Shown piece after piece: positions 797-42,714 of a stretch of 43,167 nucleotides of DNA; the first letter of the stretch is position 1; every line of letters starts with the position of its first letter. Origin of the DNA: a bacterium. GTDB taxonomy: Bacteria > DUMJ01. Position numbers and translations under genes: made by a program. The stretch covers positions 1 through 43,167 of the forward strand of contig JAOACC010000037.1 of NCBI GenBank assembly GCA_026418035.1. Reading direction: 5' to 3'. The notes under the pieces were generated by a model. That model did not search any database. It worked only from the letters and a program-made list of their open reading frames with translations, and was not told where the DNA came from.

Positions 797-830
797 ATGG
801 GCTGGCATTCGCCAGCCCGTTTTATTTTAT
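797..830. terminator. Intrinsic terminator between convergent genes
   Basis: Stem GGGCTGGC-ATTC-GCCAGCCC (799-818) followed by GTTTTATTTT on the + strand. Confidence 0.8.
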
Positions 831-1970
831 CATTTTATCTTGAAGGGAGTACCAGAGGTCTAGAACTTTTTCAGGATTTTCATACCATTCTGGAAGATCA
901 GAGCTAGATGGCATAAATATTAATCCACATCTCGTTTTTCTCTCACTAAAAGGTCTTAATATTCTCTCAAAGTAATCTTTTAATGTCTCAACCTCACTTC
1001 TAGGGAAATTCCCAAAGTAGAATTTCTTGTAGTCTAGAATTAGATTCATAGTAGCGTAATAATTATATCTCTCTGGATTTCCAAAGTTTAATCCCTTTAC
1101 TTCTGGCATATCTAGCAGGTCCTTCAAGAATTGATGTCCACTACCGCAAAAATGAACCCAACCTCCACTAAACGGTCTCAGAGCTTCTGCTATGTAAGGG
1201 GAAACAAATTCCTTAAATGTCTTTGGAGAAAGTAGTGTTGTTGTGTCCTCACAACATCTTACTCCGCCATTTTCCATATAGAGAACCCCATGATATCCTG
1301 AATCTAAAGGTTCTCCTATTACTTCTTTGAGCACTTTGGAGACACTTATATAAGCATTGGTTGTGATCTTTAATAGATGATGAATGAAATCAGGGTCATC
1401 ATATATATCTATAAAGATAGTGTCTCCATATACTAGGTGAGCTATATCTAGAGGTCCCTGAGTATCGGATAAATACAAGTGAGCTTTTCCATTTAATTTT
1501 TCTTTAAAAAAGTTTATATATTCTATAGCAGTTGGAACAAGCCCTCTATCTCTAACAAAGTCTTCATCAACCTCTTCTGGGTTTATGGAAAGAATCTGCT
1601 CTTTTGTCAAATGTTCTTTTAACCAGGGCATTATATCATCAAATATTATCTGGTTAAGGCCAAAAACAGAAGCAACAAAACCGGTCCCTAAGTTAGCTCT
1701 CATAGAGAGCTGAGCATCTCCAGGTAGTCTTGCCCTTCCTATTAATTCCCATAGATGCATAACTAGCATCTTTTCTGGATTATAAAACTGTTCCTTGAGA
1801 TTATAAGAAGGGAACCTTTCTTTTTCTGGAATATAAATGGGTGGAGGAATAATTGGTATATAGTCTGGTTCATCTCCTCTCCACACACTAGCCTGCCTCT
1901 TTTTTCCCAGTTCTATCCTTTCTAAATCTGGTTGTAATAGTTCTAATACATACTCAATCTCTGATAGCAT
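822..1970 (-). CDS. Uroporphyrinogen decarboxylase/MtaA-like (URO-D/CIMS TIM-barrel) family protein, divergent; not HemE
   Basis: SDTQGPLDIAHLVYG, LLSPKTFKEFVSPY and WVHFCG motifs typical of URO-D/methyltransferase-2-like proteins. No RQAGR motif. Confidence 0.7.
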   Translation of the reverse strand: MLSEIEYVLELLQPDLERIELGKKRQASVWRGDEPDYIPIIPPPIYIPEKERFPSYNLKEQFYNPEKMLVMHLWELIGRARLPGDAQLSMRANLGTGFVASVFGLNQIIFDDIMPWLKEHLTKEQILSINPEEVDEDFVRDRGLVPTAIEYINFFKEKLNGKAHLYLSDTQGPLDIAHLVYGDTIFIDIYDDPDFIHHLLKITTNAYISVSKVLKEVIGEPLDSGYHGVLYMENGGVRCCEDTTTLLSPKTFKEFVSPYIAEALRPFSGGWVHFCGSGHQFLKDLLDMPEVKGLNFGNPERYNYYATMNLILDYKKFYFGNFPRSEVETLKDYFERILRPFSERKTRCGLIFMPSSSDLPEWYENPEKVLDLWYSLQDKMIK

Positions 1971-2018
1971 CTGTAATACCCCCTTATGTGGTTTTTAGAA
2001 ATATAAACGGATTCATAA

Positions 2019-4418
2019 TTATTCTTCCAGAAGATTTACTTCTCTTACAGATAGGTTTTTATCTTTCGGAATTGAGAAGCTTTTTATCTCGCAAGGCTTA
2101 AAAGTAGTAAACCAGATTCTATCAAACAACTTGAATTTAGCTTTTGTCTCTTTACCAATAGTCTCATATGCTCTAAGAATGATGTCATCACTGTCTTCTC
2201 CCTCTTTTATTACAGTTACTATTATGTTTTCTTTATCTACAGAGATAAAACTCTGCTCTTGGGGTAGAATCCCTGGGTGTTTATATTCTACAAAAGCTAT
2301 TACAGGATTGTTTAGGCTTTCAGCTAATTTTACAGTATCGCTGTCTCTCCAATCTCCTTTGTGTGGATAGATTATGTATGTAAAATCTTGTTCTCCCTGG
2401 TCTATATATCTATAATCCTCATGTGGATCTAACACTCTCGGGATATGATGTGCATATACAGGACTTCTTAAGACTGTTAAAGATAACACGTTGTTATCAA
2501 CATCATAGCTATATTTGGCATTATTAATGATACTTAAACCATAGTTTCCGTCTCCTACATCTACCCATTCTCCACCAGGCTCTTCTTCTCCATTGGAGGG
2601 TCTAGTTATAAACCCATAAGGAATCTGATATGTGGCGATAGGATTGTTTACATTAACTGGAAACTTAAGCTTTAACATCTTTAATTGCTCATGCCAATCT
2701 ACAGTTACTTTTACTTCTATATACTTTAATGTCCTATAGATTGTAAATTCTTGTATAAGTTTAGATTTATTGTAATGGCTTTCTACTTTTACTGTTCCCT
2801 TAATAGGCCCTGCTTCTAATACTTTGATTTTGGCATCTAAGAATCTTCCTATTTCATTCTTAAAGCTAAAAACGTTATGACTCCAAGTATCACTAGGGTC
2901 ATCTATAACTACAGGTACAGCTGAGTTTCCTAAAAAGACATCCTTTTCATTTTCTTTATCATATAATCTCTTTATATACCCTGTCTTAGTATCTATCTCT
3001 AGGTATAACCAATCATTCTCTAAGATGTTTTCTTTTACATTTAGAGAATAGGGAAGGTGAACATCATATTTTTCGGGAACTATCCTATAGACCTTGTAAC
3101 CATATGGTAAAAGTTTATCAGTAAATATGATCTTTACCCTTCCTCCTGGAGTAGTAGCGGAGGGCTTAGATATCTGTGAAGGAATTAGATTATCTTTTGT
3201 ATCTAGAATGCTTAAATTTTTATCTCCCCAAGGAATGTCGATTTCTATAGGTGTCATTCTCTCAAATGAAGTAGTGTTAAATACTATCAAAGGTTCCCCC
3301 TTGCCTTGGGTATTAATGTCATTAGCTATATTATGTGTAGCATAAACTATTATCTTACTAGCTTTATCCTCTATGCCGCCATGCATAGCCTTTATATCCT
3401 CGTATGCTTCTGGTATACTTGTACCTGCTAAGATATCGTGAAACTGAGTAAATAATAGTGTCTGCCAGATAATCCTTAAATTATCCTTAGGATAGATAAG
3501 ATTTTTTATTTCTCTTCCCATTATTGCGATCTTTTCTCCATTCAAGAGAAGATGTTCTAATTTTCTGTTGTTTTTCTTTATCCAAGAAAGAACTGAATAA
3601 CATCCACTTGCATGATGCTGTAAGTCATCCTTTACTACGGGGAAATCTAATCCTTTGCTAGATATCTCTTCAAAAAATTTATTAGGTGAACTAAAGATAA
3701 GTCTAGGTAAGTCCTCTCTTTTATCTAGTTCTATTATATTTTCTATGTTTTCTTTTGTCGGACCTCCACCATGGTCTCCTACTCCATAAAAACACATAAG
3801 GGTATCTATCTTTTCATTAAGCTTCTCTGCTACTCTTTTTACCTGACTTTCTACCTCTTTGCCCCAAGTAGCATAGGAGAAGGGGACCCTATAGGCTAGT
3901 ATCCTTGAGCCATCAGGACTTTCCCACCAGAATATATCTTCTGGTAAATCCTTTTCATGTGGTCCTGGCCTCATAAAGACATAATAATCTATTCCCATTT
4001 TCTTTAGAATTTGTGGAATCATCCAATTATGTCCAAAAGAGTCTGGGTTATAACCAACCTTTGCTTCTATACCAAACTTCTCTTCGAAATACTTTTGTCC
4101 ATATAATCCTTGTCTTACTAGTGCCTCACCAGAGGGAATATTACAGTCTGGTTCTATCCACCATCCCCCTACTATACACCATCTTCCTTCTTCTACTTTT
4201 TCTTGTATCTTTTTGAATAACTTAGGATCAGTTTCTTCTACCCACTTATATAGACAGGCACTAGATGCAGTAAATATAAACTCTGAATATTCTTCTATTC
4301 TTTCAATAGCAGATTTAAATGTTGCCCTTGTAGTTACTAACCCTTCGTCCCACTTCCACAACCAAACCGGATCAATATGGGCATTACCAATCATATGGAG
4401 AATAAATCTCTTACTCAT
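2019..4418 (-). CDS. Alpha-mannosidase, glycoside hydrolase family 38
   Basis: GNAHIDPVWLW (Zn HxD), PDSFGH nucleophile, GDHGGGPT and QFHDILAG motifs. ATGA overlap with the ROK gene. Confidence 0.93.
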   Translation of the reverse strand: MSKRFILHMIGNAHIDPVWLWKWDEGLVTTRATFKSAIERIEEYSEFIFTASSACLYKWVEETDPKLFKKIQEKVEEGRWCIVGGWWIEPDCNIPSGEALVRQGLYGQKYFEEKFGIEAKVGYNPDSFGHNWMIPQILKKMGIDYYVFMRPGPHEKDLPEDIFWWESPDGSRILAYRVPFSYATWGKEVESQVKRVAEKLNEKIDTLMCFYGVGDHGGGPTKENIENIIELDKREDLPRLIFSSPNKFFEEISSKGLDFPVVKDDLQHHASGCYSVLSWIKKNNRKLEHLLLNGEKIAIMGREIKNLIYPKDNLRIIWQTLLFTQFHDILAGTSIPEAYEDIKAMHGGIEDKASKIIVYATHNIANDINTQGKGEPLIVFNTTSFERMTPIEIDIPWGDKNLSILDTKDNLIPSQISKPSATTPGGRVKIIFTDKLLPYGYKVYRIVPEKYDVHLPYSLNVKENILENDWLYLEIDTKTGYIKRLYDKENEKDVFLGNSAVPVVIDDPSDTWSHNVFSFKNEIGRFLDAKIKVLEAGPIKGTVKVESHYNKSKLIQEFTIYRTLKYIEVKVTVDWHEQLKMLKLKFPVNVNNPIATYQIPYGFITRPSNGEEEPGGEWVDVGDGNYGLSIINNAKYSYDVDNNVLSLTVLRSPVYAHHIPRVLDPHEDYRYIDQGEQDFTYIIYPHKGDWRDSDTVKLAESLNNPVIAFVEYKHPGILPQEQSFISVDKENIIVTVIKEGEDSDDIILRAYETIGKETKAKFKLFDRIWFTTFKPCEIKSFSIPKDKNLSVREVNLLEE

Positions 4419-5635
4419 GATCCCTCCTTCTTTATCATCTTATAAGGGTTTTTATAAAATTCATAGAGAGCAATTGTCGCTGCTCCAACAACACCTGTAT
4501 CTTTCCCTATATTTGAAGCAAGTATTCTAGTCTGCTCAGGGGAAATTGAGAAACTCCTTTCTCTTACTAATCTCTCTACTCTTGGTATAATGAGGTCTGC
4601 TCCATTAATAATAGCCTCTCTACCTAACACTACAGCCTGAGGACTAAATGTATTTATTACATTTACTAATCCAACACCGAGCCAGAAGCAATAATCATTT
4701 AAAATCTCAATTGCCTCAATATTTCCTTCTCTAGCGGTTCTATAAAAGATAGAGAGTGTTTCTAATGGGTCTTCTTTTATTAAATGGCTCAGTTTCTCTT
4801 TTATTCTTTCTATAAGAGAACCAACAGACGTGTAAAGTTCCAGGCATCCATAATTCCCACAACTGCATTTAGGACCGTTTATATCTACAGTAGTATGCCC
4901 TAATTCTCCTGCCAGTTCTCCAGCACCTCTATATATCTCCCCATTAATTATTATTCCAGCTCCAACGCCTGTGCCTATTGCAAGATAGACAAAATTATCT
5001 ATATCCTTACAAGAACCAAACCACTTTTCTCCTAATGCACATGCTTTAGCATCATTCTCTATAAATGTAGGTAGGTGAAACTCTCTTTCTATTATCTCTT
5101 TTAAGGGGATATTTCTCCAACCAGTGAAATTTGGCGGTGAGATAATAATCCCCTTACTTGGACTTAAAGGGCCAGGAGAACCTATCCCTATGGCAATAAT
5201 TTTTCCCCTTATCTTCGGCTCTATTTCTTCGAGAAGAGATCGCACGACATCTTTAAGTGTATTTAGCGTAATGGGAAAATGTTGATATAAATCAGAATTA
5301 ACTCTCTTTGAGGTTAATAAATTACCCCCAAGATCTACTAGTCCGCAGGATATAGAAGTCCTTGCTAAGTCTATACCTAATACATAATAAGCATCATTAT
5401 TAATACTTAGTAGGGTTCTACTCCTACCTATCTCTCCTTTTACATTTCCTACCTCTCTTACAAGTCCCTTTCTTATAAGTTCATCAACTAGGCTTGTTAT
5501 AGTAGTTGGAGTTAGAGATGTGATCTCTGTCAGCTCTATGCGAGAAATTGGTGAATATGTTCTTATGGTTTGTAGTACTAGACTTCTATTGTAATTTCTT
5601 ACTTCAGGTAGATTTCTCCCTTGTCGTTTTTTCAC
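4415..5635 (-). CDS. ROK-family transcriptional repressor (XylR/NagC-like)
   Basis: N-terminal wHTH (SRIELTEITSLTPTTIT), ENDAKACALGE, GTGVGAG, GELGH and CSCGNYGCLE Zn motif. GTG start. Confidence 0.92.
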   Translation of the reverse strand: MKKRQGRNLPEVRNYNRSLVLQTIRTYSPISRIELTEITSLTPTTITSLVDELIRKGLVREVGNVKGEIGRSRTLLSINNDAYYVLGIDLARTSISCGLVDLGGNLLTSKRVNSDLYQHFPITLNTLKDVVRSLLEEIEPKIRGKIIAIGIGSPGPLSPSKGIIISPPNFTGWRNIPLKEIIEREFHLPTFIENDAKACALGEKWFGSCKDIDNFVYLAIGTGVGAGIIINGEIYRGAGELAGELGHTTVDINGPKCSCGNYGCLELYTSVGSLIERIKEKLSHLIKEDPLETLSIFYRTAREGNIEAIEILNDYCFWLGVGLVNVINTFSPQAVVLGREAIINGADLIIPRVERLVRERSFSISPEQTRILASNIGKDTGVVGAATIALYEFYKNPYKMIKKEGS

Positions 5636-5641
5636 TCTAAC

Positions 5642-7897
5642 CTATCTCGCCTCTTTCATAATTATCCTCAGCCATTCCTTATATCTCTCTAGGCTAAACG
5701 GTGGATATCCCAAAAGATAATGATTTAGATACTTATTTTTATCGAGTTCCCACTCTATAATAAATAATCTCTTTTCCCCTCTACTTACTTTAATCTTACC
5801 TAATATTTTCTTAGATAAAGGTGAGACTAGAAAATCTCCAGAATTTAACTCTTCTTTAGTATCAGCATCGTATATTCTATAAGTTCCTTGCATTTCTATA
5901 AAAGTATCATTTACTCCTACTACTTTCACATACCAGCTTTCTGGTTCTGTAATCATTATACAGAATGGTTCTTGAACCCTTTTTATATAATAATAGGCAA
6001 GTTTTTTATTGAAATAGTAGTCAACTATAGCGTCTGAAATCTGAGGCCAACAATCTATTACATTCCACCATATAATACCCCATATATCATCAGAAAGTCT
6101 AGCTCTCTCTATAAAAAATTTCTTTGCCTCTGCCTGTGTAATTTGACTAGCTAGGATAAAGTCCTCTATATTTTCTGGAATAATTCCAAATAACTCTCTT
6201 ATTTGATTAGCCATCAGTTCATTTCTATTGTAGCTCCTTCTCTTTGATCTCCAGTGCTCCACTGAATGTAGTCTCCAGTAGTCATTATCCCAGTGCCACA
6301 GATAATCTTCAGGTATAAATTTTTTCAAACTTTCTAGATTTGGGCACCCATGGTATCCTATTTCACTTATGAACTTTGCTTTGTTTTCAGTGTAGAATCT
6401 ACTTTTATAATAATCCCTAGGTCCCCATAGATGCTGTTCAGGTGGAGTCAATTTCCCATTTGACTTAACTACCATATCAGAAATATAAGGTGATGAAGGT
6501 AAATATGGTCTATATGGATCTAATCTCTTGCAGACAGAGGGTAAGACCTTTCTAGTTAATATGTTATCAGAAGGGAGAAGATTTTCCAAGTTATAAGCAT
6601 AATCGCACTCATTATCTCCTGACCAGAGTATCAAACTTGGATGATTCCTCAATCTTTTTACTATCTTTATAACCTCTTCTTCTACTGTCTTTTTAAATTC
6701 TTCTATCTGAGGATATCTAGCACAGGCAAAGGTAAAGTCCTGCCAAACTACTATTCCGTGAGAATCACAAAAGTCAAAGAATTCTTCTGACTCATAGACT
6801 CCTCCACCCCAGCATCTTATTATATTACAGCCTAGATCGTTAAAAAGTTCTAAAACAGGAATGACCCTTTCTCTATCTCTTGAATGGAATGCATCTAGTG
6901 GAACCCAGTTAGAACCCCTTAGTCTTACTGGAATGCTATTTATTATGAATTTAAAAGTTCCTTCTTCAGCAGTCTCAGTTCTCTCTAGATGAACAGTCCT
7001 TATACCAATTTTATTTATTTTTTCATCTAAGATTTCTCCATCATAAATAAGCTCACACTTTACTTCGTATAGATTAGGTTCACCGTAACCTTTGGGCCAC
7101 CATAGAAGAGGGTCTTTCAAGTTTATAGCAATATGTCCTGTTATAAACTCTACTGGAAATTCGAATATTTGTTTTTTACCATCTTTGTCAGTAAAGGTAA
7201 ATCTTAAAATAAACTCTTCAAAGTATTGTAGATTGGTCCTAAACTTAAAGAATATATCTAAAGTAGCAAGGTTATCTTCTACTTTTACTGTAGCATAGTA
7301 AAGTTCTTCTATCTCGTTATCTTTAATCTCCCTTAATTCTATATCCTTCCATATCCCAGAGGATACTATTCTTGGAGCTATGTCCCAACCAAATGAATGC
7401 TGAGCCTTTCTAAGCCATAATGCTTCCTCTCTTCCTTCCCAAGAGACAGTTATTGCCTCATAATTTCTATCCTTTGCCCAGAGAATAGGGGAATCTATCT
7501 TTACTATAAGGTTATTTTCCTCTTTTAAAAGACCTGTCACTTCAAATTCATACTCGATAAACATATTATTAGTCTTACCTAAAAGATTTCCATTTAGCCA
7601 TACTCTAGCAATAGTATCAATGCCATAAAAGATAAGTTTGAATTTTTTATCTAGAAACTCTTTGGGTACTTTGAAGTTCTTTTCATACCACCATTCGTAA
7701 AACTCATATTTACGTAGGTTTAAATAATTCTTTCCGAAGAATGGATCTTGTATTAACCTAGCATTTAATAGGTCTAGATATACATCTCCAGGCACAGTAG
7801 CCTTAATATGTTGAAATTTCTCCTTAGCCTCATCAATATCCTTTACCTTCCCTTGAGGACCAAAATATAAATCCCAAGTACCAGAGAGAGAAAACAT
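5642..7897 (-). CDS. Beta-mannosidase-type glycoside hydrolase family 2
   Basis: RKAQHSFGWD, GSNWVP, IRCWGGGVYE, WSGDNE (acid/base), FISEIG (nucleophile) and DCWPQIS motifs. GGAGG RBS. Confidence 0.88.
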   Translation of the reverse strand: MFSLSGTWDLYFGPQGKVKDIDEAKEKFQHIKATVPGDVYLDLLNARLIQDPFFGKNYLNLRKYEFYEWWYEKNFKVPKEFLDKKFKLIFYGIDTIARVWLNGNLLGKTNNMFIEYEFEVTGLLKEENNLIVKIDSPILWAKDRNYEAITVSWEGREEALWLRKAQHSFGWDIAPRIVSSGIWKDIELREIKDNEIEELYYATVKVEDNLATLDIFFKFRTNLQYFEEFILRFTFTDKDGKKQIFEFPVEFITGHIAINLKDPLLWWPKGYGEPNLYEVKCELIYDGEILDEKINKIGIRTVHLERTETAEEGTFKFIINSIPVRLRGSNWVPLDAFHSRDRERVIPVLELFNDLGCNIIRCWGGGVYESEEFFDFCDSHGIVVWQDFTFACARYPQIEEFKKTVEEEVIKIVKRLRNHPSLILWSGDNECDYAYNLENLLPSDNILTRKVLPSVCKRLDPYRPYLPSSPYISDMVVKSNGKLTPPEQHLWGPRDYYKSRFYTENKAKFISEIGYHGCPNLESLKKFIPEDYLWHWDNDYWRLHSVEHWRSKRRSYNRNELMANQIRELFGIIPENIEDFILASQITQAEAKKFFIERARLSDDIWGIIWWNVIDCWPQISDAIVDYYFNKKLAYYYIKRVQEPFCIMITEPESWYVKVVGVNDTFIEMQGTYRIYDADTKEELNSGDFLVSPLSKKILGKIKVSRGEKRLFIIEWELDKNKYLNHYLLGYPPFSLERYKEWLRIIMKEAR

Positions 7898-7910
7898 AAT
7901 TTTTTACCTC

Positions 7911-8933
7911 CTATTCTATCTCCTTCAGTGGTCTACTCCACTCTTCGAATACTGCCTCTATGTTCTCTTTTGGATCTTTTAAACCCCATTCACACTGGGC
8001 AATTACACCACCTCTACCTGTATCAAGAGCCTTTCTCACTCTTCTTACCGCTAATCTTACCTCTTCTACCGTTCCAAATGGAAGTATATATTGTCTATCT
8101 ATCTCGCCCCAGAAGGTAATCTTTCCCTTATACCTTCTTCCTAGCTCTTCTATATTCATACAAAAGAGCTGTGAATTTATAGCATCTATTCCTATCTCTA
8201 TCAAGTCTTGATAAATTGCTTCTATATGACCATCTGAATGAAAGAAAACAAACTTGTTATGAGATTTTAATACTTCACAGTAGTCTTTGTATAGAGGTTT
8301 AAAGAATTCCCTCCAAAGTTTAGGAGAAATAAGGAGTGAATTTTGAGTGCCCCAATCATCCATAAAAGATACGCCATCTATATCTGTCTTTGCCCACATC
8401 TCTAATTCTTTGATGTAGAATTCATGTAACATATCACGTAACGCGTATACTTCTTTTACACCATAGGCTAGATCTAAAAATAGATTTTCTGTTCCTCTTA
8501 AAAATTGCATCCTTTCAAAAGGTCTTACCTCAGTTCCGACTTTAACGAATTTATCTGTTTCTGCACAGCTTTTATTAACTTCCGAGAGGTCCGCCTCTTC
8601 TAGTAACTCCCAAGGTGGCTGATAATTTTTGATCGCTGACCAATCTTTTAAAGGTGGTTCTTTTACCTCACCAACAACCCCTGATTCAGCAACTTTCCAG
8701 ACACAACCCCACGCGTCTACGTATTCTCCAACCACATTTGGTTTACCCTTTGCCCTTTTACTAACGCCATATCTATATCTTGGTGTTGTGAAATCAGATG
8801 GGTATTTGCCTAAGACCTCTTCTAATTCCTTTTTCCTGAACATCTCTACCCCTGGAAGATACCATAGTTCTCTTGGAACCCTATCAGGATTCTCAAATCT
8901 TAGAGCTCTTATAACTCTTTCCCTTGAAGTCAT
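7911..8933 (-). CDS. URO-D/MtaA-CmuA-like family protein; not HemE
   Basis: MTSRERV...PDRVP N-terminus, DAWG, PFERMQFLRG, DDWGTQ..LLISP, FFHSDG, GEIDRQ and GGVIAQCEWG motifs. Confidence 0.85.
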   Translation of the reverse strand: MTSRERVIRALRFENPDRVPRELWYLPGVEMFRKKELEEVLGKYPSDFTTPRYRYGVSKRAKGKPNVVGEYVDAWGCVWKVAESGVVGEVKEPPLKDWSAIKNYQPPWELLEEADLSEVNKSCAETDKFVKVGTEVRPFERMQFLRGTENLFLDLAYGVKEVYALRDMLHEFYIKELEMWAKTDIDGVSFMDDWGTQNSLLISPKLWREFFKPLYKDYCEVLKSHNKFVFFHSDGHIEAIYQDLIEIGIDAINSQLFCMNIEELGRRYKGKITFWGEIDRQYILPFGTVEEVRLAVRRVRKALDTGRGGVIAQCEWGLKDPKENIEAVFEEWSRPLKEIE

Positions 8934-8953
8934 AATGTTTCCTCTGTATTTGT

Positions 8954-8981
8954 ATTATAAAAATAAAAGGGATAAACTCAA
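8954..8981 (-). promoter_or_regulatory. Putative sigma70 promoter of the URO-D/mannosidase operon
   Basis: Minus strand TTGAGT (8981-8976), 16-bp spacer, TATAAT (8959-8954). Confidence 0.55.
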
Positions 8982-9028: not shown

Positions 9029-9571
9029 TTATTCTAAAAACTTAAAGCTTGCTATTATCTGTCTAAATGTAGCTTCCATATCCTGAAAGCTTTCAGAAAT
9101 TGTATCACAGAGAACTGCTACACCATAATTGTCCTTTACAGTATAAGCCTCCATAGTCTTTACAGGGATACTAATATTTTGACCCTTAAAGGTAAATGAA
9201 TATACCCTTAACATACCGGGAGACCCAGCTAAGTTATATTCTACTATAGAATTCTCAACATAATCAGGAAGATTATCCTTTAACCATTTACCAACTGCTT
9301 CAGCATACTGTTTAGCAGTAAATCCCTCGGGAATCTCCTCCATCATTACAATTAGTTCAGAAGAAGTTTCTTCATCATAAAACCAAGCCAAAGCGCCTTC
9401 TAGTTCTCCTTCTATCCAGCCTTCAGGGTAGGATATACTGAATCCCACTTCTGAGTCGGTATAGGTATTTTTTAATTCTTGACTTGCTGACTCTTGTGCC
9501 ATTACAGAAACTGCAGAAAAGAGAAATGAGAAGATTAACACTAAGCTAACTAAAGTTTTTTTGTAAATCAT
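9029..9571 (-). CDS. Secreted PsbP/Mog1p/DcrB-like protein
   Basis: Signal peptide ending VMA-QE, YTDSEVGFSISYPEGW motif and FRQIIASFKF C-terminus. Start moved to the ATG at 9571 behind a GGAGG RBS. Confidence 0.65.
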   Translation of the reverse strand: MIYKKTLVSLVLIFSFLFSAVSVMAQESASQELKNTYTDSEVGFSISYPEGWIEGELEGALAWFYDEETSSELIVMMEEIPEGFTAKQYAEAVGKWLKDNLPDYVENSIVEYNLAGSPGMLRVYSFTFKGQNISIPVKTMEAYTVKDNYGVAVLCDTISESFQDMEATFRQIIASFKFLE

Positions 9572-9624
9572 TTCAAAAACCTCCATTCCTTTTTAGCCAT
9601 TAGGCTTAAATTTAATTACAACTC

Positions 9625-25457: not shown

Positions 25458-27437
25458 ATGAGAGTTTTTAAATGTTTCTTGATATTTTTATTAGTTTTGA
25501 ATTTATTTAATTTAACTTTTAGTAACTTGGCTATAGCACAGCAGAAGGTTATTAGTGTTCAGGTTTACAATAGTCTGCAGGACTATCAGAAAGCAACTGG
25601 AAAGAAGATTGATAAGTTTAATGAAGCTCCGATGTTAGCTGATCTTGTTAAACAGGGAAAGCTTCCTCCTGTAGAACAGAGACTTCCTCAAGAACCGCTG
25701 GTAGTTGCTCCTCTTGAAGAGATTGGACAGTATGGAGGAACTTGGAGGAGAGTTGCAGTTGGGGTTAGCGATGTCGGAATAATTAGTAGTAGACTCACCT
25801 ATGAGAATCTTGTCCGGTGGAGCGCTGACGGTAAGAAGGTTATCCCGAATGTGGCTACTAGGTGGAAGATAGAGGATAACGGTAGAACCTTTACTTTCTA
25901 CCTAAGAAAAGGTATAAAATGGTCAGATGGTCAGCCATTTACAGCAGAAGATATAATGTTCTGGTATAGAGACGTCTTATTAAATAAAGACCTTACACCC
26001 ACTTTTCCTGTATGGCTTACAGTAGAGGGTAAACCTGGTAAGGTTGAAAAAATAGATGATTATACCATCAGATTCAAATTTGATGCTCCTTATGGATTAT
26101 TTATGCAGATACTAGCAGGACCAAATGCCTTGGGTATTACTCAGTATCCTGCTCATTATTTAAAGCAATTTCATATTAGCTATACTCCTAAAGAAAAGCT
26201 AGAGACTATGACAAAAGAGGCTGGTTTTCAGTTATGGCATCAGTTATTCTCTAATAAACAGAGTTGGCAGAATGCAGATTGTCCGAAGATATGGGCGTGG
26301 GTAATAACTACTCCTCCCCCTTCTTCTACTGTTATTGCTACAAGAAATCCATACTATTGGAAAGTTGATACTGCTGGAAATCAGCTGCCTTATATAGATA
26401 GGATAAGCTTCAGTATAGTTGAAAATATGGAAATTCTTAATATGAGAGCTATGGCGGGAGAAATAGATATGCAATTTAGACATATATCATGGACGAACTA
26501 TACTTTGTTTATGGAGAATAAAGATAAGGGGAACTATCGAGTTTTAAAGTGGACCTCTGCTGAAGGCTCTAATGCTCTACTTATGCCTAACCTTAATCAT
26601 AAAGATCAGGTACTTCGTAAACTTTTTGAAAACATTGATTTTAGAAGAGCTCTCTCTTTGGCTATAAATAGAGAAGAGATAAATCAGATAGCTTATCTTG
26701 GTCTGGGTAAGCCTAGACAGGCAGCTGTTATTCCTCAATGTCCATATTATAAACCAGAGTATGAAAAGGCTTATGCAGAGTATGATCCAGCAAAGGCTAA
26801 TCAATTGCTAGATAAGATTGGACTAACAAAGAGAGATAAGGAAGGTTTTAGATTAAGACCCGATGGAAAGACCTTAACAGTAACTATAGAATATGCACCT
26901 ATATTTGGACCTTGGACAGATGTTGTTACAATGGTGAAAAAATATTGGGAGGCTATTGGCATAAAGACCCTCCTTAAAGAAGAGAGTAGAGACCTGTTTA
27001 CTACTAGGGCGCAAGCTGGAGAATTAGATATCGGCATATGGACTATGGACAGATGCTTTACCCCTCTGGTAGAACCACTTTACTGGGTTCCAGGTATGCC
27101 AAGTGGAACACCACCTAACAACGCCAATGAATATTGGAGATGGTATAGGACTGGAGGCAAAGAGGGAGAGAGGCCTCCTGAGGATATAGTGAAGATATAT
27201 CAGCTTTATGATAAGGCTAAGAGTACTACCAATGAGACAGCTAGAACAAACTATGCTCATGAAATTATGAGATTAAATGCTAAAAATCTCTGGGTTATAG
27301 GTATAGTTGGTGTTTTACCCCAGATAGTAATAGTAAAGAATAACTTTAGAAATGTTCCTGAAGATGCCATTCAAGATTGGCTACAGCTTACAGAAGGTAA
27401 TACTTTCCCAGAACAATACTTCTTTAAAACTAAGTAA
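25458..27437 (+). CDS. ABC transporter solute-binding protein, family 5
   Basis: Signal peptide (AIA-QQ), NEAPMLADLVKQGKLPPVEQRLP, KWSDGQPFTAED, RNPYYWKVD..GNQLPYID and PEQYFFK. Confidence 0.93.
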   Translation: MRVFKCFLIFLLVLNLFNLTFSNLAIAQQKVISVQVYNSLQDYQKATGKKIDKFNEAPMLADLVKQGKLPPVEQRLPQEPLVVAPLEEIGQYGGTWRRVAVGVSDVGIISSRLTYENLVRWSADGKKVIPNVATRWKIEDNGRTFTFYLRKGIKWSDGQPFTAEDIMFWYRDVLLNKDLTPTFPVWLTVEGKPGKVEKIDDYTIRFKFDAPYGLFMQILAGPNALGITQYPAHYLKQFHISYTPKEKLETMTKEAGFQLWHQLFSNKQSWQNADCPKIWAWVITTPPPSSTVIATRNPYYWKVDTAGNQLPYIDRISFSIVENMEILNMRAMAGEIDMQFRHISWTNYTLFMENKDKGNYRVLKWTSAEGSNALLMPNLNHKDQVLRKLFENIDFRRALSLAINREEINQIAYLGLGKPRQAAVIPQCPYYKPEYEKAYAEYDPAKANQLLDKIGLTKRDKEGFRLRPDGKTLTVTIEYAPIFGPWTDVVTMVKKYWEAIGIKTLLKEESRDLFTTRAQAGELDIGIWTMDRCFTPLVEPLYWVPGMPSGTPPNNANEYWRWYRTGGKEGERPPEDIVKIYQLYDKAKSTTNETARTNYAHEIMRLNAKNLWVIGIVGVLPQIVIVKNNFRNVPEDAIQDWLQLTEGNTFPEQYFFKTK

Positions 27438-27443
27438 TCTAAT

Positions 27444-27470
27444 GGAGAGAGGTTGATGACCTCTCTCCTT
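27444..27470 (+). terminator. Stem-loop after the SBP gene (partial terminator or mRNA stabiliser)
   Basis: GGAGAGAGGT-TGATG-ACCTCTCTCC, with only a weak TTAAATT tail. Confidence 0.6.
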
Positions 27471-27491
27471 AAATTCAAGTATGGAGGTATG

Positions 27492-28496
27492 ATGACTAGT
27501 AGAGAAATAGTATTAAAAAGTTTAAATTTTGAAGGACCTGAAAGGATACCTATGACCTTACCATCACCATATCCGAATGATGTAATTGGGGTAGGCTTGG
27601 GACCGAATCCTTATGTGAGTGAAGAATGGGTCTATAAGGGTAATAATAGATGGGAAAGAGTAGACGAATGGGGCAATACTTGGGCTAGACTTGAAGCGTA
27701 TTCAAAGGGGGAAGTTGTGAAGGGAGCTATAGAGGATTGGAATCAGTTAGATACGTATGAATTTCCACCTCTAGACTTGGAGTCAAGATATGAACCTGCA
27801 AGGAAGATTTTTAAAGAGACGCCGGATAAGTTTCATATAGGATTTCTTCCTGGGTTTCCATTTAGTATTGCTAGATATCTGAGAAGAATGGATAACTTTT
27901 TATTAGATGTAGCTGCAGAAAAGGAAAATGTAGCTAGATTACTTAAAAGTATTGCTGACCTACTTGAAATTGTAATAGAAAAGTTTGCCAAAGTTGGGGC
28001 AGATGCTGTTATGTTCGCTGAGGATTGGGGAACTCAAGATAGACTTTTAGTTTCACCTAAATCTTGGAGAGAATTATTTAAGCCTGGTTTTGTTCAACTC
28101 TGTAATACCGCTCATAAACTTGGTCTTTATGTCTTTATGCACTCTTGTGGACATATCTATGAGATAATTCCAGACTTGATAGAGGTTGGTATAGATGTCC
28201 TTCAGTTTGATCAGCCGGCATTACATGGAGTAGATAATCTGGCTAGAGATTTTGGTGGTAAGGTTAATTTCTGGTGTCCGGTAGATATACAACAGATACT
28301 ACCTCAAAAAAATGAAAGACTAATAGAAGAGTTTGCTAAAGAAATGATAGAAAAGTTGGGTTGTTTTAATGGTGGATTTATAGCCGGTTACTATCAGTCT
28401 AACGAGGCTTTAGGCCTTGATCCTTACTGGCAGGATGTTGCCTGTAGGGCTTTTGTCAAATATGGTTATTTGAATAAAACTAAAAAGGAGGTATGA
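27492..28496 (+). CDS. URO-D/MtaA-CmuA-like family protein; not HemE
   Basis: MTSREIV...PERIP, DEWG, EDWGTQDRLLVSP, FMHSCG, PVDIQ and GGFIA. Start moved to 27492 (or 27489) after GGAGG. Confidence 0.85.
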   Translation: MTSREIVLKSLNFEGPERIPMTLPSPYPNDVIGVGLGPNPYVSEEWVYKGNNRWERVDEWGNTWARLEAYSKGEVVKGAIEDWNQLDTYEFPPLDLESRYEPARKIFKETPDKFHIGFLPGFPFSIARYLRRMDNFLLDVAAEKENVARLLKSIADLLEIVIEKFAKVGADAVMFAEDWGTQDRLLVSPKSWRELFKPGFVQLCNTAHKLGLYVFMHSCGHIYEIIPDLIEVGIDVLQFDQPALHGVDNLARDFGGKVNFWCPVDIQQILPQKNERLIEEFAKEMIEKLGCFNGGFIAGYYQSNEALGLDPYWQDVACRAFVKYGYLNKTKKEV

Positions 28497-28498
28497 GT

Positions 28499-30472
28499 AT
28501 GAGGCTTTTAAAAACTGGTTTAGTGTTATTTTTGGTCTTGGGTTTACTTGTAAGCACTTGTAGTATAGTATTTTCTCAGGAAAAAATTCTTCCTGGAGAA
28601 TACTATAACCTCTCAGATTATGAAAAGTTAACAGGAAAGAAGGTTACTAAGTTTAATGAAGCACCAATGCTAGCAGAATTAGTAAAACAAGGGAAACTTC
28701 CTTCAGTGGAACAAAGACTACCAAAGAATCCTTTAGTAGTAACACCTGTAGAAGAGATTGGTCAGTATGGTGGAACTTGGCGTAGGGCTTGGGTTGGTCT
28801 TTCCGATCAATGGGGACCAAATAAGATCTGTCATGAGCATCTAGTTATGTTCGATAAAGGCGGAACAAAGGTATTGCCAAATATAGCGGAAAGTTGGAAA
28901 GTCTCTAGAGATGCTAAGGTTTATACATTTAAGATTAGAGAAGGCATTAAATGGTCAGATGGAACCCCATTAACAACCGAAGATGTAATGTTCTGGTATG
29001 AAGATTTAATATTAAATAAAGAGCTCACACCGAATGTTCCAACTTGGCTTATGGCTGGTGGTAAACCTTGTAAGATAGTGAAGATAGATACCTATACATT
29101 TAGGGTAGAATTTGAACAGCCGAGCCCTCTATTCCTTATAAATATATGCAAATCTGGAGGCAATCAATTCTTTCTGCCAAAACATTATGGTAAGCAGTTC
29201 CATATAAAGTATGTTGCAAAAGAAGAGTTAGAAAAGAAAGCAAAAGATGCAGGATTCCAGTTCTGGTATCAATTATTTGATGCTAGAGTAAGTAACTCTA
29301 ACGCTTGGCTACAAAATCCTGAACTCCCAGTCTTACATCCTTGGAAAAACACTACCCTTCCAACCGCTACTACTATGATATTTGAGAGAAATCCATATTA
29401 CTTTAAGATAGATCCAGCAGGTAATCAGTTACCCTATATTGATAAGGTAGCTCATGCCCTCGTAGAAAATAGAGAAGTAATCACTATAAAAGCGGTTGCT
29501 GGTGAGATAGATATGCAGGCAAGACATATCAGTCTTCCCGATTATACACTCCTTATGGAGAATAGAGCTAAAGGTAATTATAGGGTTCTTAACTGGAAAC
29601 AAGGCGTAGGCTCTGATGTTATGATATGCTTAAATCAGAATGTTAAAGATCCTGTCCTTCGTAAATTATTTGAAGATAGAAGATTTAGACAGGCTTTATC
29701 TATAGCTATTAATAGAGAGGAAATCTGGAAGCTTGTATACCTAGGTATGGGTAAACCTAGACAATGTTCTTTGATTAGTGGTGTTGCTTTCTATGATCCA
29801 GAGTGGGAGAAGATCTACGCAGAGTATGATCCAAAGAAAGCTAATGAGATTTTAGATAGAATTGGCCTTAATAAAAGAGATAAAGACGGGTTTAGGTTGA
29901 GAGAGGATGGAAAGACTCTAGCTTTAACTATAACCTTCCCAAGTGGTATATTTGGTGCCTGGTCTGATGTCCTTGAGATGGTAAAGAAATATTGGGAGTC
30001 TGTAGGGGTAAAGGTTGCTCTACAGCCAGTTGAGAGGTCTCTATATGTTACTAGGTGTAATGCTGGAGATTTAGAGATTGGTGTATGGAACTTTGATAGG
30101 AATGCGGCGGTAATATCTGATCCTGGAAGACTTTTGGGAACAGTTACCGATGGACCTTGGGCTCCACTTTACGGTCAGTGGTACTCTACAGGTGGTAAAG
30201 GTGGAGAAGAACCTAAGGGGGATATTAAAAAGATTTATGAACTTTGGGACAAGGCAAAGGCAACAGCAGATGAAAAGCAAAGAAATCGATTCTTCAAAGA
30301 GATTATCAATCTTCACAAGAGGAATATCTGGATGATAGGAATTGTTGGTGAATTACCTCAACCAGTTGTAGTAAAGAATAATTTTAGAAACGTCCCCGAT
30401 GGTATTATTTGGGATGATACCCTTAGGTCTCCTAAGAATGCTAGACCTGAGCAGTTCTTCTTCAAGCAGTAA
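28499..30472 (+). CDS. ABC transporter solute-binding protein, family 5
   Basis: Clear paralog of 25458 with the same motifs and a signal peptide. The ATG at 28499 is best spaced from AGGAGG (28493 is an alternative). Confidence 0.93.
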   Translation: MRLLKTGLVLFLVLGLLVSTCSIVFSQEKILPGEYYNLSDYEKLTGKKVTKFNEAPMLAELVKQGKLPSVEQRLPKNPLVVTPVEEIGQYGGTWRRAWVGLSDQWGPNKICHEHLVMFDKGGTKVLPNIAESWKVSRDAKVYTFKIREGIKWSDGTPLTTEDVMFWYEDLILNKELTPNVPTWLMAGGKPCKIVKIDTYTFRVEFEQPSPLFLINICKSGGNQFFLPKHYGKQFHIKYVAKEELEKKAKDAGFQFWYQLFDARVSNSNAWLQNPELPVLHPWKNTTLPTATTMIFERNPYYFKIDPAGNQLPYIDKVAHALVENREVITIKAVAGEIDMQARHISLPDYTLLMENRAKGNYRVLNWKQGVGSDVMICLNQNVKDPVLRKLFEDRRFRQALSIAINREEIWKLVYLGMGKPRQCSLISGVAFYDPEWEKIYAEYDPKKANEILDRIGLNKRDKDGFRLREDGKTLALTITFPSGIFGAWSDVLEMVKKYWESVGVKVALQPVERSLYVTRCNAGDLEIGVWNFDRNAAVISDPGRLLGTVTDGPWAPLYGQWYSTGGKGGEEPKGDIKKIYELWDKAKATADEKQRNRFFKEIINLHKRNIWMIGIVGELPQPVVVKNNFRNVPDGIIWDDTLRSPKNARPEQFFFKQ

Positions 30473-40278: not shown

Positions 40279-41016
40279 CTACTTTGCTGAATTTAAAATT
40301 CTTTTTGCATTATTTTTTAATATATTTAATTTTTCCCCCTCGGATATCTTACTACCTTTCACCCAGCCAATAGCTGGTCTTGGGTCTATAAAAGGAAAAT
40401 CTGTTCCAAAAAGAATCCTGTCACTGCCAATTCTTTCAACGTAATACTCAATTATTCCGTTATACATAGCAGAACCCGTCAGATCTAGGTAAACATTATC
40501 GACATTCTTTGCCAAATCTACTGCTAGGAGCATTGATTTTAAGTCTCCTCCTGAGTGTCCCATGATGAATATTGCATTTTGATAAGATTTAGCTACTTCT
40601 ATAAGTGTCCTTACATCTCTTTCCCCCCATGTATGTATTAAGATAGGCCATCTGTGCTCATCTGCATACTTATATGCATATAGATAATTAACCCCATCTA
40701 TGGGGTACAGATGTGTTCCCGGATGTAATTTGATTCCTATAAATCCCTGTGAAGCTCTCTTTTTGAGCTCATCTTCCATCTTACCTGCAAAGTAAGGACT
40801 CAATGTAACATATCCTTTGAACCTATCTGGAAAAGCATTCATAGCTTCAAAAACCATTTCATTACCTAATTCGTAGTCAGGCCCTATTCCTATAAGAGCA
40901 CTTATCCAGGCAAATTCCATGCCTATCCTATCCATTATTTTTACCATAGATAAGAAGTCTCCCCCATCATAGTAAAAGTTATACCACTTCCCTAGATGTG
41001 CATGTGCATCTATCAT
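40279..41016 (-). CDS. Amidohydrolase family 2 protein (intact metal site)
   Basis: IDAHAH, GIKLHP, ILIHT, MGHSGG and LFGTDFP. Confidence 0.88.
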   Translation of the reverse strand: MIDAHAHLGKWYNFYYDGGDFLSMVKIMDRIGMEFAWISALIGIGPDYELGNEMVFEAMNAFPDRFKGYVTLSPYFAGKMEDELKKRASQGFIGIKLHPGTHLYPIDGVNYLYAYKYADEHRWPILIHTWGERDVRTLIEVAKSYQNAIFIMGHSGGDLKSMLLAVDLAKNVDNVYLDLTGSAMYNGIIEYYVERIGSDRILFGTDFPFIDPRPAIGWVKGSKISEGEKLNILKNNAKRILNSAK

Positions 41017-41759
41017 AGACTTACCTCCTGAATAAGTCTGTCAGCATTTTTATATGCTATATAATTTTTAACTTCTTCCGGTATATCTGCCTTCTCTATA
41101 TAGAATATCGTAGACCCTGGATTCTTATATGGGAGATTACTTCCAAAAAGCATACGTTCTCCACCAAATCTCTTATATAAAGTCTCTATCCCAAGAAATG
41201 TGATATATCCAGATAATTCTATATATACATTTTTATACCTTTTTAAAAGTGGGAAGATGTAAGAACTCTGTCTGTAGGTTAAATCTGTTAAGACCAATCT
41301 AATATTGGGGTGATTTTTCAACATGCTATATATATCTTTCCAGCCCGTACTATTTGGAGACATTAATATAGGGATTTTTATCTCTTCTAAAAGGGATAAT
41401 AGATCTCCTATTACTTCCTCTTCTAATAAGAAATTATGTAAGTCTGGGAAAAACCTAACCGCCTTGACATTGTTAATTTTAAGCTCTTCTAAAAGCTTAT
41501 CAGATGCGTTAATTGGGAAAATATCAATTGGTAGAAGAGTCCAGGTAACATAGAGATTAGGACAATCTTTAATCTCTTCTACCAATTTCTTATCCCCGAA
41601 ATAGGCATCATAGTCTCTGCTATAGCTGTGATAGACTAATGCTCTTTTGATATTAAATCTATTCATCTCCTCATTTAATTTGTTAACATCTAACAGATTG
41701 TCTATAGTGACAACTGTAGTTTTTCCTATCATTACGTTAAAATCGAAATATTCTCTCAT
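41013..41759 (-). CDS. Amidohydrolase family 2-like protein with degenerate metal site
   Basis: Same fold pattern (AVRFFP, NVYIELS, ERMLFGSNLP, IAYKNA) but the His/Asp ligands are replaced. Confidence 0.8.
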   Translation of the reverse strand: MREYFDFNVMIGKTTVVTIDNLLDVNKLNEEMNRFNIKRALVYHSYSRDYDAYFGDKKLVEEIKDCPNLYVTWTLLPIDIFPINASDKLLEELKINNVKAVRFFPDLHNFLLEEEVIGDLLSLLEEIKIPILMSPNSTGWKDIYSMLKNHPNIRLVLTDLTYRQSSYIFPLLKRYKNVYIELSGYITFLGIETLYKRFGGERMLFGSNLPYKNPGSTIFYIEKADIPEEVKNYIAYKNADRLIQEVSL

Positions 41760-41767
41760 CTATTCTT

Positions 41768-42652
41768 TCACCCTATATCTTGAATATATATTTCGGTTCC
41801 ACTAAGATAAGATACCTCAATAGCCTTTAATACTATGACTACCTCTAGCATATCATCATAATCTATTGGTAATTTGGAAGTTTTTATCATCTCTAGAAAT
41901 TTTAAAAGACCATAGTAGTATGGGGAGGGTGTTTGCTTACCATCCCAATAATTCCAACCATTTTTGCCAAAGGCTGAGATTGTAAACGTATAGACTGCAT
42001 TCCCTAACATCATAAGTTCTACTATTCTATCATCGGGATAGGTTAGAGTAACTGCTACATTATTGTTATTATTTACTGCCATAACTCTTTCAACCCCGCT
42101 ACCGAATATCTCTTGACATAGTTCCACTATATGGACTCCATAAAAAAATATTCCCTGATATTCACTGTAGATATCTGCCGGGCCACATACAAATCCGGCA
42201 GTTAAGGGACCCTTAGAAGATAGATCTTCTTTCAATTTTACTATAGGCTCATCAAATCTAAGGGTAGAAAAAGATGTTATAAGTGTACCTTTTTCTTTAG
42301 CCAAATCTATTATACGCTTAGCATTCTCTACAGATGCCTCTAGAGGTTTATCTATGAAAGTTGGTATACCAGCTTCAATAAATGGTTTTGAAAATTTATA
42401 ATGTAAGGCACCATCTCTTAATACCACCATAACTGCATCTACTTTCCCAATCATATCTTCAGGGTATTGAACTATTTCGGGAATATTACCTAGTTTAGCA
42501 ACTTCTTCTGTTCTATTTCTCTCAAATCCCCATATAGAAACAATCTTTGCTCCTTCTATTTTTAACCCCTTTATCCCTTCTGGTAGGTTAGTAAGTTGCG
42601 AAAATGCTATTGCATGAGAATTATCAGAACCTACTATGCCAATTCTTGTCAT
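41768..42652 (-). CDS. Gfo/Idh/MocA-family oxidoreductase (short, YGxH type)
   Basis: RIGIVGSDNSHA, PTFIDKP and FFYGVH. Start moved to 42652 after AGGAGGGG. Confidence 0.82.
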   Translation of the reverse strand: MTRIGIVGSDNSHAIAFSQLTNLPEGIKGLKIEGAKIVSIWGFERNRTEEVAKLGNIPEIVQYPEDMIGKVDAVMVVLRDGALHYKFSKPFIEAGIPTFIDKPLEASVENAKRIIDLAKEKGTLITSFSTLRFDEPIVKLKEDLSSKGPLTAGFVCGPADIYSEYQGIFFYGVHIVELCQEIFGSGVERVMAVNNNNNVAVTLTYPDDRIVELMMLGNAVYTFTISAFGKNGWNYWDGKQTPSPYYYGLLKFLEMIKTSKLPIDYDDMLEVVIVLKAIEVSYLSGTEIYIQDIG

Positions 42653-42671
42653 TAGACCCCTCCTAATTATT

Positions 42672-42704
42672 AATAATAAAGGGGGCAATATATTCATTGC
42701 CCCC
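42672..42704 (-). terminator. Stem-loop/terminator after the SBP gene
   Basis: GGGGGCAAT-N6-ATTGCCCCC (42681-42704) with a TTTATTATT tail on the minus strand. Confidence 0.7.
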
Positions 42705-42714
42705 AAATATTAGA

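Follow-up and report, generated by a model that had tools for sequence, protein, structure and literature searches.

A mannosidase operon with two URO-D-type proteins: candidate corrinoid methyltransferases for sugar O-demethylation in an uncultured hot-spring bacterium

A five-gene mannosidase operon bounded by URO-D-type genes

The analysis of a 43,167-nt stretch of bacterial DNA (contig JAOACC010000037.1 of assembly GCA_026418035.1, here contig C88 and referred to as the window) reveals a minus-strand operon in which two mannosidase genes and a regulator gene are enclosed by two genes for proteins of the uroporphyrinogen decarboxylase (URO-D) type, UroD-A and UroD-B, whose possible role is the subject of this study (Table 1). 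The assembly spans 2.13 Mb and is 97.55% complete, its phylum is represented by only 7 species genomes in the genome collection used, and the data sets found to contain host sequence are two of DNA, both labelled hot-springs metagenome, and none of RNA; the host is an uncultured hot-spring bacterium. In transcription order, UroD-A, a GH2 beta-mannosidase, a ROK regulator, a GH38 alpha-mannosidase and UroD-B are separated by 13, 6, −4 and 48 nt, and the open reading frame (ORF) listing agrees exactly with the layout given in an earlier note on this DNA. The evidence base of all readings presented here is genomic.

The assignment of the two mannosidases is strengthened by domain and structure matches. 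The GH38 protein carries N-terminal, middle and C-terminal domains scoring 234.1, 62.9 and 132.4 bits in Pfam, all over their cut-offs, and its closest PDB matches are the cytosolic-type alpha-mannosidases Ams1 (6lz1, 2e-78) and 7ufr (2e-67). By full-length similarity the GH2 protein is predicted to be a beta-mannosidase, with PDB matches to 9nfe (1e-179), the beta-mannosidase 5n6u (2e-109 over residues 30-724) and BtMan2A (1e-89). The regulator scores 232.6 bits for ROK and 24.9 bits for MarR in Pfam and 210 bits with the NagC model, below the cut-off of 650 of that model.

The earlier note had framed the operon with one promoter candidate and one terminator, and both are present as sequence candidates. 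An AGAGGA ribosome-binding site lies between the promoter candidate and the UroD-A start codon, and because promoter-like sites are no commoner in the region than in shuffled sequence (28 observed against 33.8 ± 5), the promoter stands as a candidate only. At the other end, a GC-rich hairpin is likely to be a terminator shared by UroD-B and the convergent SBP_bac_5 gene.

A third URO-D-type gene in the window, UroD-C, had been overlooked. Its product is 34% identical to UroD-A, and the gene is enclosed by two SBP_bac_5 paralogs and lies 5' of a phosphomanno/glucomutase gene, so that the region 25458-30472 looks like a second sugar-uptake unit around a URO-D protein.

Table 1. Location of the operon features in the window and of related genes on other contigs of the same genome
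Feature	Location	Strand	Size	Basis or remark
UroD-A, UroD/MtaA superfamily	7911..8933	-	340 aa	PF01208 57.5 bits
GH2 beta-mannosidase-type glycosidase	5642..7897	-	751 aa	Pfam GH2 domains, PDB matches
ROK regulator, N-terminal MarR-type winged helix, NagC/Mlc-like	4415..5635	-	406 aa	Pfam, NCBIfam
GH38 alpha-mannosidase, cytosolic type	2019..4418	-	799 aa	Pfam, PDB matches
UroD-B, UroD/MtaA superfamily	822..1970	-	382 aa	PF01208 39.4 bits
Promoter candidate, sigma-70-like TTGAGT-16 nt-TATAAT	8954..8981	-		10/12 matches; 20 nt 5' of first ATG
GC-rich hairpin	797..820		10 bp	Between convergent SBP_bac_5 gene (end 782) and UroD-B (end 822)
UroD-C, third URO-D paralog in window	27453..28496	+	347 aa	PF01208 62.6 bits; motif H-S-C-G
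SBP_bac_5 paralogs enclosing UroD-C	25458-27437 and 28493-30472		659 aa each
PsbP-like protein	9029-9586			PF18933
Two tandem Amidohydro_2 genes and GFO/IDH/MocA oxidoreductase	40279-42706
Stand-alone corrinoid protein	C32:2869-3507		212 aa	B12-binding_2 and B12-binding domains, D-x-H-x-x-G
RACo activator, full length	C95:1219-3021		600 aa	All four domains
MetH N-terminal half	C145:4024-5739		571 aa	S-methyl_trans and Pterin_bind, no B12 domain
MtaB homologue and MtaA-like fusion	C107:39325-42470 (locus L028:7001-10146)		584 aa (fusion)	MtaB: PF12176, E = 1.8e-192
URO-D paralog beside methionine genes	C87:1334-2392 (locus L042)			31% identical to UroD-A

Predicted fold and putative metal-site residues of the URO-D proteins

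All three URO-D proteins score above the curated PF01208 cut-off of 23.9 bits. The best NCBIfam models for UroD-A and UroD-B are of the MtaA/CmuA type and match weakly, TIGR01463 giving 50.5 and 26.7 bits against the cut-off of 235.4 that defines membership. Structure prediction, which the earlier note had called for, returned confident AF2 models (pLDDT 95.1 for UroD-A and 95.9 for UroD-B), whose top Foldseek match was in both cases MtaA (4ay7), followed by HemE structures, all at probability 1.00. TM-scores to 4ay7 were 0.70 for UroD-A and 0.63-0.71 for UroD-B, and on these models both proteins are predicted to adopt the UroD/MtaA-type (beta/alpha)8 fold. Single-sequence searches of solved structures returned nothing for UroD-A and a chance-level match only for UroD-B. 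With profiles, UroD-A gave chance matches only (E > 0.5), while the UroD-B profile aligned VHFCG with the LHICG zinc site of MtaA 4ay7 (E = 0.15) and also matched the corrinoid methyltransferase CdmB (9rui, E = 0.0026), a similarity that is marginal and confined to the profile search. A search of the ESM Atlas with a stored homologue returned URO-D clusters only.

The putative zinc site was located with the help of the MtaA alignment and of an MtaA-like paralog encoded by the same genome, the zinc ligands of MtaA being H-x-C plus a distal Cys. Across 27 orthologs, UroD-A keeps H232-S-D234-G, C258, E277 and C314-E315-W316 invariant. In an alignment of 30 relatives, UroD-B shows an invariant H273-x-C275-G (H273-F-C275-G in UroD-B itself) and N295-F-G-N-P-E300, E300 being almost invariant, and the distal C-terminal Cys is absent. 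When all URO-D paralogs of the genome are aligned, the same column reads H/D-x-C/D-G almost throughout. Compared with the methylcobamide:coenzyme M methyltransferases MtaA, MtbA and MtsA, the two proteins have MtaA as their best structural match and an H-x-C/D-G motif at the same strand end; they differ in their low TIGR01463 scores, in the Asp that replaces the first Cys in UroD-A, and in the lack of a methanogenesis context, the host not being a methanogen.

HemE was considered as an identity for both proteins and rejected. Fold and Pfam family are shared with HemE, but neither protein has the RQAGR motif, as the earlier note had stated (UroD-B has KKRQASVWRG in its place), no HemE NCBIfam match was obtained for them at E<=0.01, and the window holds no haem genes. 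The best score of the HemE model TIGR01464 in the genome, 85.6 bits against a cut-off of 302.95, belongs to another paralog, and the operon genes are not among its 6 matches. HemE itself is not known to have the metal-type motif that the UroD proteins bear.

URO-D proteins are repeatedly linked to sugar genes

The genome contains 22 PF01208 matches and one further Pfam match on contig C12, hence 23 URO-D paralogs, which are very divergent from one another. Their loci were sorted into classes by manual reading of Pfam-annotated neighbourhoods, and 12 of the 23 paralogs were found within two genes of glycosidases, SBP_bac_5, GFO/IDH/MocA or xylose-isomerase-like genes; two of the remaining loci are ambiguous, three are corrinoid-linked and six lie elsewhere. 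The glycosidase families involved are GH2, GH4, GH29, GH38, GH78 and GHL6, and the sugar-linked paralogs mostly show operon-like spacing (gaps of −14 to +68 nt). Together, the operon and these 12 loci bear out the earlier proposal that the URO-D proteins are tied to sugar catabolism.

This observation was extended to other genomes. Database relatives of UroD-A number more than 7000, with identities of about 70% across phyla, and 591 of 602 candidate stretches were confirmed in genome contigs, from which 80 loci were kept. The UroD-B family is smaller (237 matches), with 377 of 597 stretches confirmed in metagenome contigs and 79 loci kept. A sugar-related neighbour lies within two ORFs at 15 of 31 UroD-A ortholog loci, and a sugar or sugar-acid neighbour at 19 of 45 UroD-B relative loci, some of which are near-duplicates. 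The contexts of UroD-A vary, its GH38/GH2/ROK synteny being confined to the nearest relatives, and no conserved partner gene emerged when 1020 flanking ORFs were clustered, the largest non-URO-D cluster covering 11 of 80 loci. For UroD-B, the four metagenome loci nearest to it preserve the order GH2-(ROK)-GH38-UroD-B, and neighbours of its relatives include SBP_bac_5, GFO, AP_endonuc_2, KduI, UxaE, sulfatases, GH98, GH20 and GH29.

The same neighbourhoods bear on a rival explanation, in which the URO-D proteins are corrinoid methyltransferases for non-sugar donors (lignin-like methoxylated aromatics, methanol, methylated thiols or amines) and sit in sugar loci since both serve the degradation of plant or algal biomass. 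Such donors would be in keeping with the characterised methyltransferase I (MT1) enzymes of the superfamily, all of which use aromatic methyl ethers, halomethanes or thiols as far as the available portions of PMC13222342 and PMC10418091 go, with the highly variable UroD-A contexts, about half of which have no sugar gene within two ORFs, and with an MtaB methanol system in the genome. However, the tight operon coupling to glycosidases and sugar-binding proteins, repeated at 12 of 23 paralogs, and the gene order kept around UroD-B argue for a sugar-related task, and no aromatic-degradation genes were found beside the URO-D genes. We regard non-sugar donors as unlikely.

Corrinoid machinery is encoded elsewhere in the genome

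The Pfam scan, which covered 32 larger ORFs in the window, found no B12-binding, RACo or tetrapyrrole family, in agreement with the earlier note. Its broader claim that the operon has no corrinoid partner does not survive the search of the whole genome that it had itself proposed, which located both B12-binding proteins and an activator outside the window. Three of the five B12-binding matches in the genome are B12-radical-SAM enzymes. Another is a stand-alone corrinoid protein on contig C32, hereafter the carrier, whose gene has a URO-D paralog on either side, with genes for an FGGY sugar kinase and a LacI regulator beside them; one of the two paralogs is 36-40% identical to three paralogs in sugar operons. 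On contig C107, an MtaB homologue lies directly 5' of a fusion gene in which an MtaA-like URO-D domain is joined to B12-binding_2 and B12-binding domains, and the pair suggests methanol use that would feed methionine or folate.

A full-length RACo activator (contig C95) and a protein equivalent to the N-terminal half of MetH, devoid of a B12 domain (contig C145), complete this set, and methionine synthase appears to be split in three, with the C145 protein, the C32 carrier and RACo in place of the reactivation domain of MetH. Both the corrinoid protein and the activating enzyme that accompany an MT1 are therefore present in the genome that encodes UroD-A and UroD-B. MTHFR and FTHFS are also encoded. 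An acetogenic lifestyle was considered and rejected, no CdhC/ACS match being found in this 97.55%-complete genome.

Two side observations concern these components. Many RACo_C_ter matches, the host's included, were flagged with one in-frame stop within the matched region; the host has an intact 600-aa ORF, and the flags probably stem from the way in which the match window is translated. A further URO-D paralog, on contig C87, stands beside MetY, MetX and MetW, and its relatives, 47-48% identical, occur in URO-D/carrier/pterin-methyltransferase clusters of four other genomes; this paralog may take part in the methylation of homocysteine.

Carrier and activator co-occur with UroD-A orthologs

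The link between the URO-D proteins and the corrinoid machinery was strengthened by comparing genomes. A C32-type carrier ortholog (49-97% identical) was present in all 50 genomes with a UroD-A ortholog and RACo in 49 of them, against a background of about 28-34% in two phylum samples (RACo in 103/301 Chloroflexota and 67/201 Planctomycetota, the carrier in 57/201 Planctomycetota); because related genomes are not independent, these counts are to be read as enrichments and not as probabilities. Within the samples, a UroD-A relative occurs in 5 of 301 Chloroflexota genomes, including the sample's centre genome, with RACo in all five, and a UroD-B relative in 3 of 201 Planctomycetota genomes, with RACo and the carrier in all three.

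In some genomes the association is physical, carrier or RACo being directly adjacent to the URO-D gene at the loci L086, L091, L109 and L240. At L086, a UroD-A ortholog, the carrier and a MetH-N-like gene follow one another on one strand, and at L240, a planctomycetotal locus, an ABC importer is followed on one strand by RACo, a UroD-B relative (43% identical) and a further URO-D gene. The most extensive arrangement is that of L091, which reads GH29 fucosidase, three URO-D genes, carrier, UroD-A ortholog, RACo, homocysteine S-methyltransferase, URO-D, RhaT and GH78 rhamnosidase (Pfam), the URO-D gene next to RhaT being 66% identical to the host's rhamnosidase-linked paralog. This methyl-transfer hub, set between a fucosidase and a rhamnose importer with its rhamnosidase, is a further point against non-sugar donors. 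Seen from the carrier, the 1.5-kb flanks of 30 carrier loci held a URO-D paralog at 13, RACo at 7 and a MetH-N-like gene at 5; in two carrier loci the flanking URO-D protein is a 46-48% identical relative of the host's GH4-linked paralog, and a D-S-D-G URO-D paralog adjoins the carrier in the host and in two other genomes.

These patterns help to decide between the two options that the earlier note had left side by side, namely demethylation that relies on a corrinoid protein provided in trans and corrinoid-independent, metal-dependent chemistry of an unrecognised CAZyme-like class, which could comprise UroD-fold ether hydrolases, isomerases or sugar-acid decarboxylases. The comparative data favour the former. 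The corrinoid-independent class is disfavoured because the carrier and activator almost always co-occur with the orthologs and are adjacent in some genomes, as is the carrier with the D-S-D-G paralogs. Several features would nevertheless fit it: no carrier lies in the window or within two ORFs at the 31 and 45 relative loci, many paralogs have harder ligands in the zinc motif (H-S-D-G in UroD-A, D-S-D-G in others), and UroD-B relatives have neighbours characteristic of sugar-acid routes, among them KduI, UxaE, DHDPS-type aldolases and TRAP transporters. The superfamily also contains the corrinoid-free HemE, MetE and epoxide CoM transferase, according to the accessible part of PMC10418091. On balance we consider corrinoid-independent chemistry improbable and less likely than corrinoid-linked demethylation.

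The direction of methyl transfer was weighed on the same loci. In a methyltransferase II or reverse role, the URO-D proteins would not take methyl groups off a substrate but would deliver them from the methylated carrier to a thiol or to the hydroxyl group of a sugar, in an MtaA-like or biosynthetic reaction. UroD-B and UroD-C do retain H-x-C, one half of MtaA's thiol-activating zinc site, the C87 paralog stands beside methionine-synthesis genes, and the clusters of its Bacteroidota-type relatives could form a split methionine synthase. However, the loci are catabolic, a dedicated acceptor (S-methyl_trans or MetH-N-like) is already present in L086 and L091, which makes UroD-A an extra component there and fits the donor side, and no known thiol cofactor pathway turned up, none having been specifically searched for. 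The reverse role is accordingly held to be very improbable.

A proposed route for sugar O-demethylation

O-methyl sugars occur in many natural glycans, for example algal, plant pectic and invertebrate ones, and O-methyl groups block glycosidases and downstream catabolic enzymes. We propose that UroD-A and UroD-B are substrate-specific corrinoid methyltransferases that remove O-methyl groups from imported sugars with a shared carrier acting in trans, a reading to which we give an even chance. Taken singly, UroD-A is probably a substrate:corrinoid methyltransferase (MT1) and UroD-B probably a corrinoid-linked methyltransferase. As the carrier and its re-activator are encoded elsewhere in the genome, the UroD enzymes probably strip sugar methyl groups without oxygen. 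That the substrates are O-methyl sugars, and which sugars they are, is an inference, as are the direction in which the methyl group moves and the part played by the metal; methyl-mannosides as substrates are a guess from the content of the operon.

Under this proposal, manno-oligosaccharides would be imported, the GH38 alpha-mannosidase and the GH2 beta-mannosidase would cleave them, and a cytoplasmic UroD enzyme would act as methyltransferase I on O-methyl groups that block these two or later enzymes. A metal at the H-x-D/C site would polarise the ether oxygen while the Co(I) of the carrier attacks the methyl carbon, and the shared carrier of contig C32 would serve UroD-A, UroD-B and UroD-C alike. 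The resulting methyl-Co(III) carrier would be unloaded onto homocysteine or tetrahydrofolate by the MetH N-terminal half, and RACo would re-reduce carrier that had become oxidised. More broadly, and somewhat short of an even chance, anaerobic glycan degraders of many uncultured phyla may share a hub-and-spoke B12 system, with UroD methyltransferases for each sugar operon forming dozens of spokes around one carrier, RACo keeping that carrier active and a split MetH passing the methyl groups to methionine or the folate C1 pool.

Several points weigh against the proposed demethylation. The main caveat, which applies to every reading, is that co-occurrence by itself is no proof that UroD-A depends on the carrier or RACo: both could serve mainly the split methionine synthase, so that their co-occurrence would show a shared background and not a shared reaction. 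The window itself holds no corrinoid protein, activator or methyl-acceptor gene, and adjacency of UroD and carrier genes is rare elsewhere, since a B12-binding neighbour lies within two ORFs at 0 of 31 UroD-A loci and 0 of 45 UroD-B loci. Clustering with a carrier, methyltransferase II or activator is limited to 3 of 80 UroD-A loci, where the carrier adjoins the ortholog, and, for UroD-B relatives, to L240 and the 3 of 79 loci with RACo within 8 kb. The sugar-neighbour counts come without a matched random-gene control, from genomes that are rich in sugar genes and with some metagenome loci near-duplicates. The presumed metal site departs from that of MtaA in both proteins, with Asp at the Cys position of H-x-C in UroD-A and the distal Cys missing in UroD-B. 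One or two carriers would have to serve about 20 candidate MT1, whereas described systems usually have one carrier per MT1. Finally, aliphatic sugar ethers are chemically more difficult to demethylate than aryl ethers, and no enzyme of the family is known to do so.

Relation to described demethylases and significance

The three-component corrinoid O-demethylase and dehalogenase systems of anaerobes have MT1 enzymes of the UroD superfamily (OdmB, VdmB, MtvB, MtoB and CdmB), whose partners are a corrinoid protein, a methyltransferase II and an activating enzyme. The available parts of PMC13222342 report 26 systems in A. dehalogenans; together with those of PMC10418091, they place O-, S- and halogen-demethylases in the superfamily, which also has clades of unknown substrate. 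The system proposed here resembles these O-demethylases and dehalogenases in its UroD TIM barrel, in the stand-alone D-x-H-x-x-G corrinoid protein, in the RACo-type ATP-dependent activator, in a pterin/homocysteine acceptor module in the genome and in the many MT1 paralogs per genome. It differs in that the MT1-like genes of the host are scattered singly in sugar operons without a carrier of their own, that methyl ethers of aliphatic sugars, and not aryl ethers or halomethanes, are presumed to be the substrates, that the host has no acetyl-CoA synthase match, and that similarity reaches CdmB only marginally.

A cytochrome P450 demethylates 6-O-methyl-D-galactose in aerobic marine bacteria (PMC6292453, as far as its accessible text goes). 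It would share the proposed task, clearing a blocking O-methyl group in glycan catabolism, but its fold and chemistry are unrelated, and it depends on oxygen, releases formaldehyde and uses no corrinoid. This oxygen-dependent P450 was the sole sugar demethylase that the literature searches brought up, and no report of UroD/MtaA enzymes with sugar substrates or of anaerobic sugar O-demethylation was found in the texts available, in part as excerpts; the unknown-substrate MT1 clades of PMC13222342 could bear on novelty. If the proposed route is true, it would explain how strict anaerobes clear O-methyl groups from sugars, as an oxygen-free counterpart of the P450 enzyme, and would assign a role to the very numerous genes annotated as "uroporphyrinogen decarboxylase family" (23 in this 2.1-Mb genome). 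It would also tie glycan degradation to cobalamin demand, methionine and C1 metabolism, and provide a new auxiliary activity in carbohydrate catabolism and a new class of enzymes with which methylated polysaccharides could be tailored.

Further observations

In a set of 50 genomes (G001-G050), the URO-D query returned 5 to 97 candidates per genome, which are candidates and not verified gene counts; the range suggests very large expansions of the URO-D superfamily in several uncultured phyla. Next to the operon, the window encodes a PsbP-like protein, which occupies the same place in the relatives L046, L047 and L133; the host that carries this gene is a non-phototroph. Near its far end, the window also holds two tandem Amidohydro_2 genes with a GFO/IDH/MocA oxidoreductase gene, and on contig C99 an Amidohydro_2 gene follows a URO-D paralog that adjoins a GH78 rhamnosidase.

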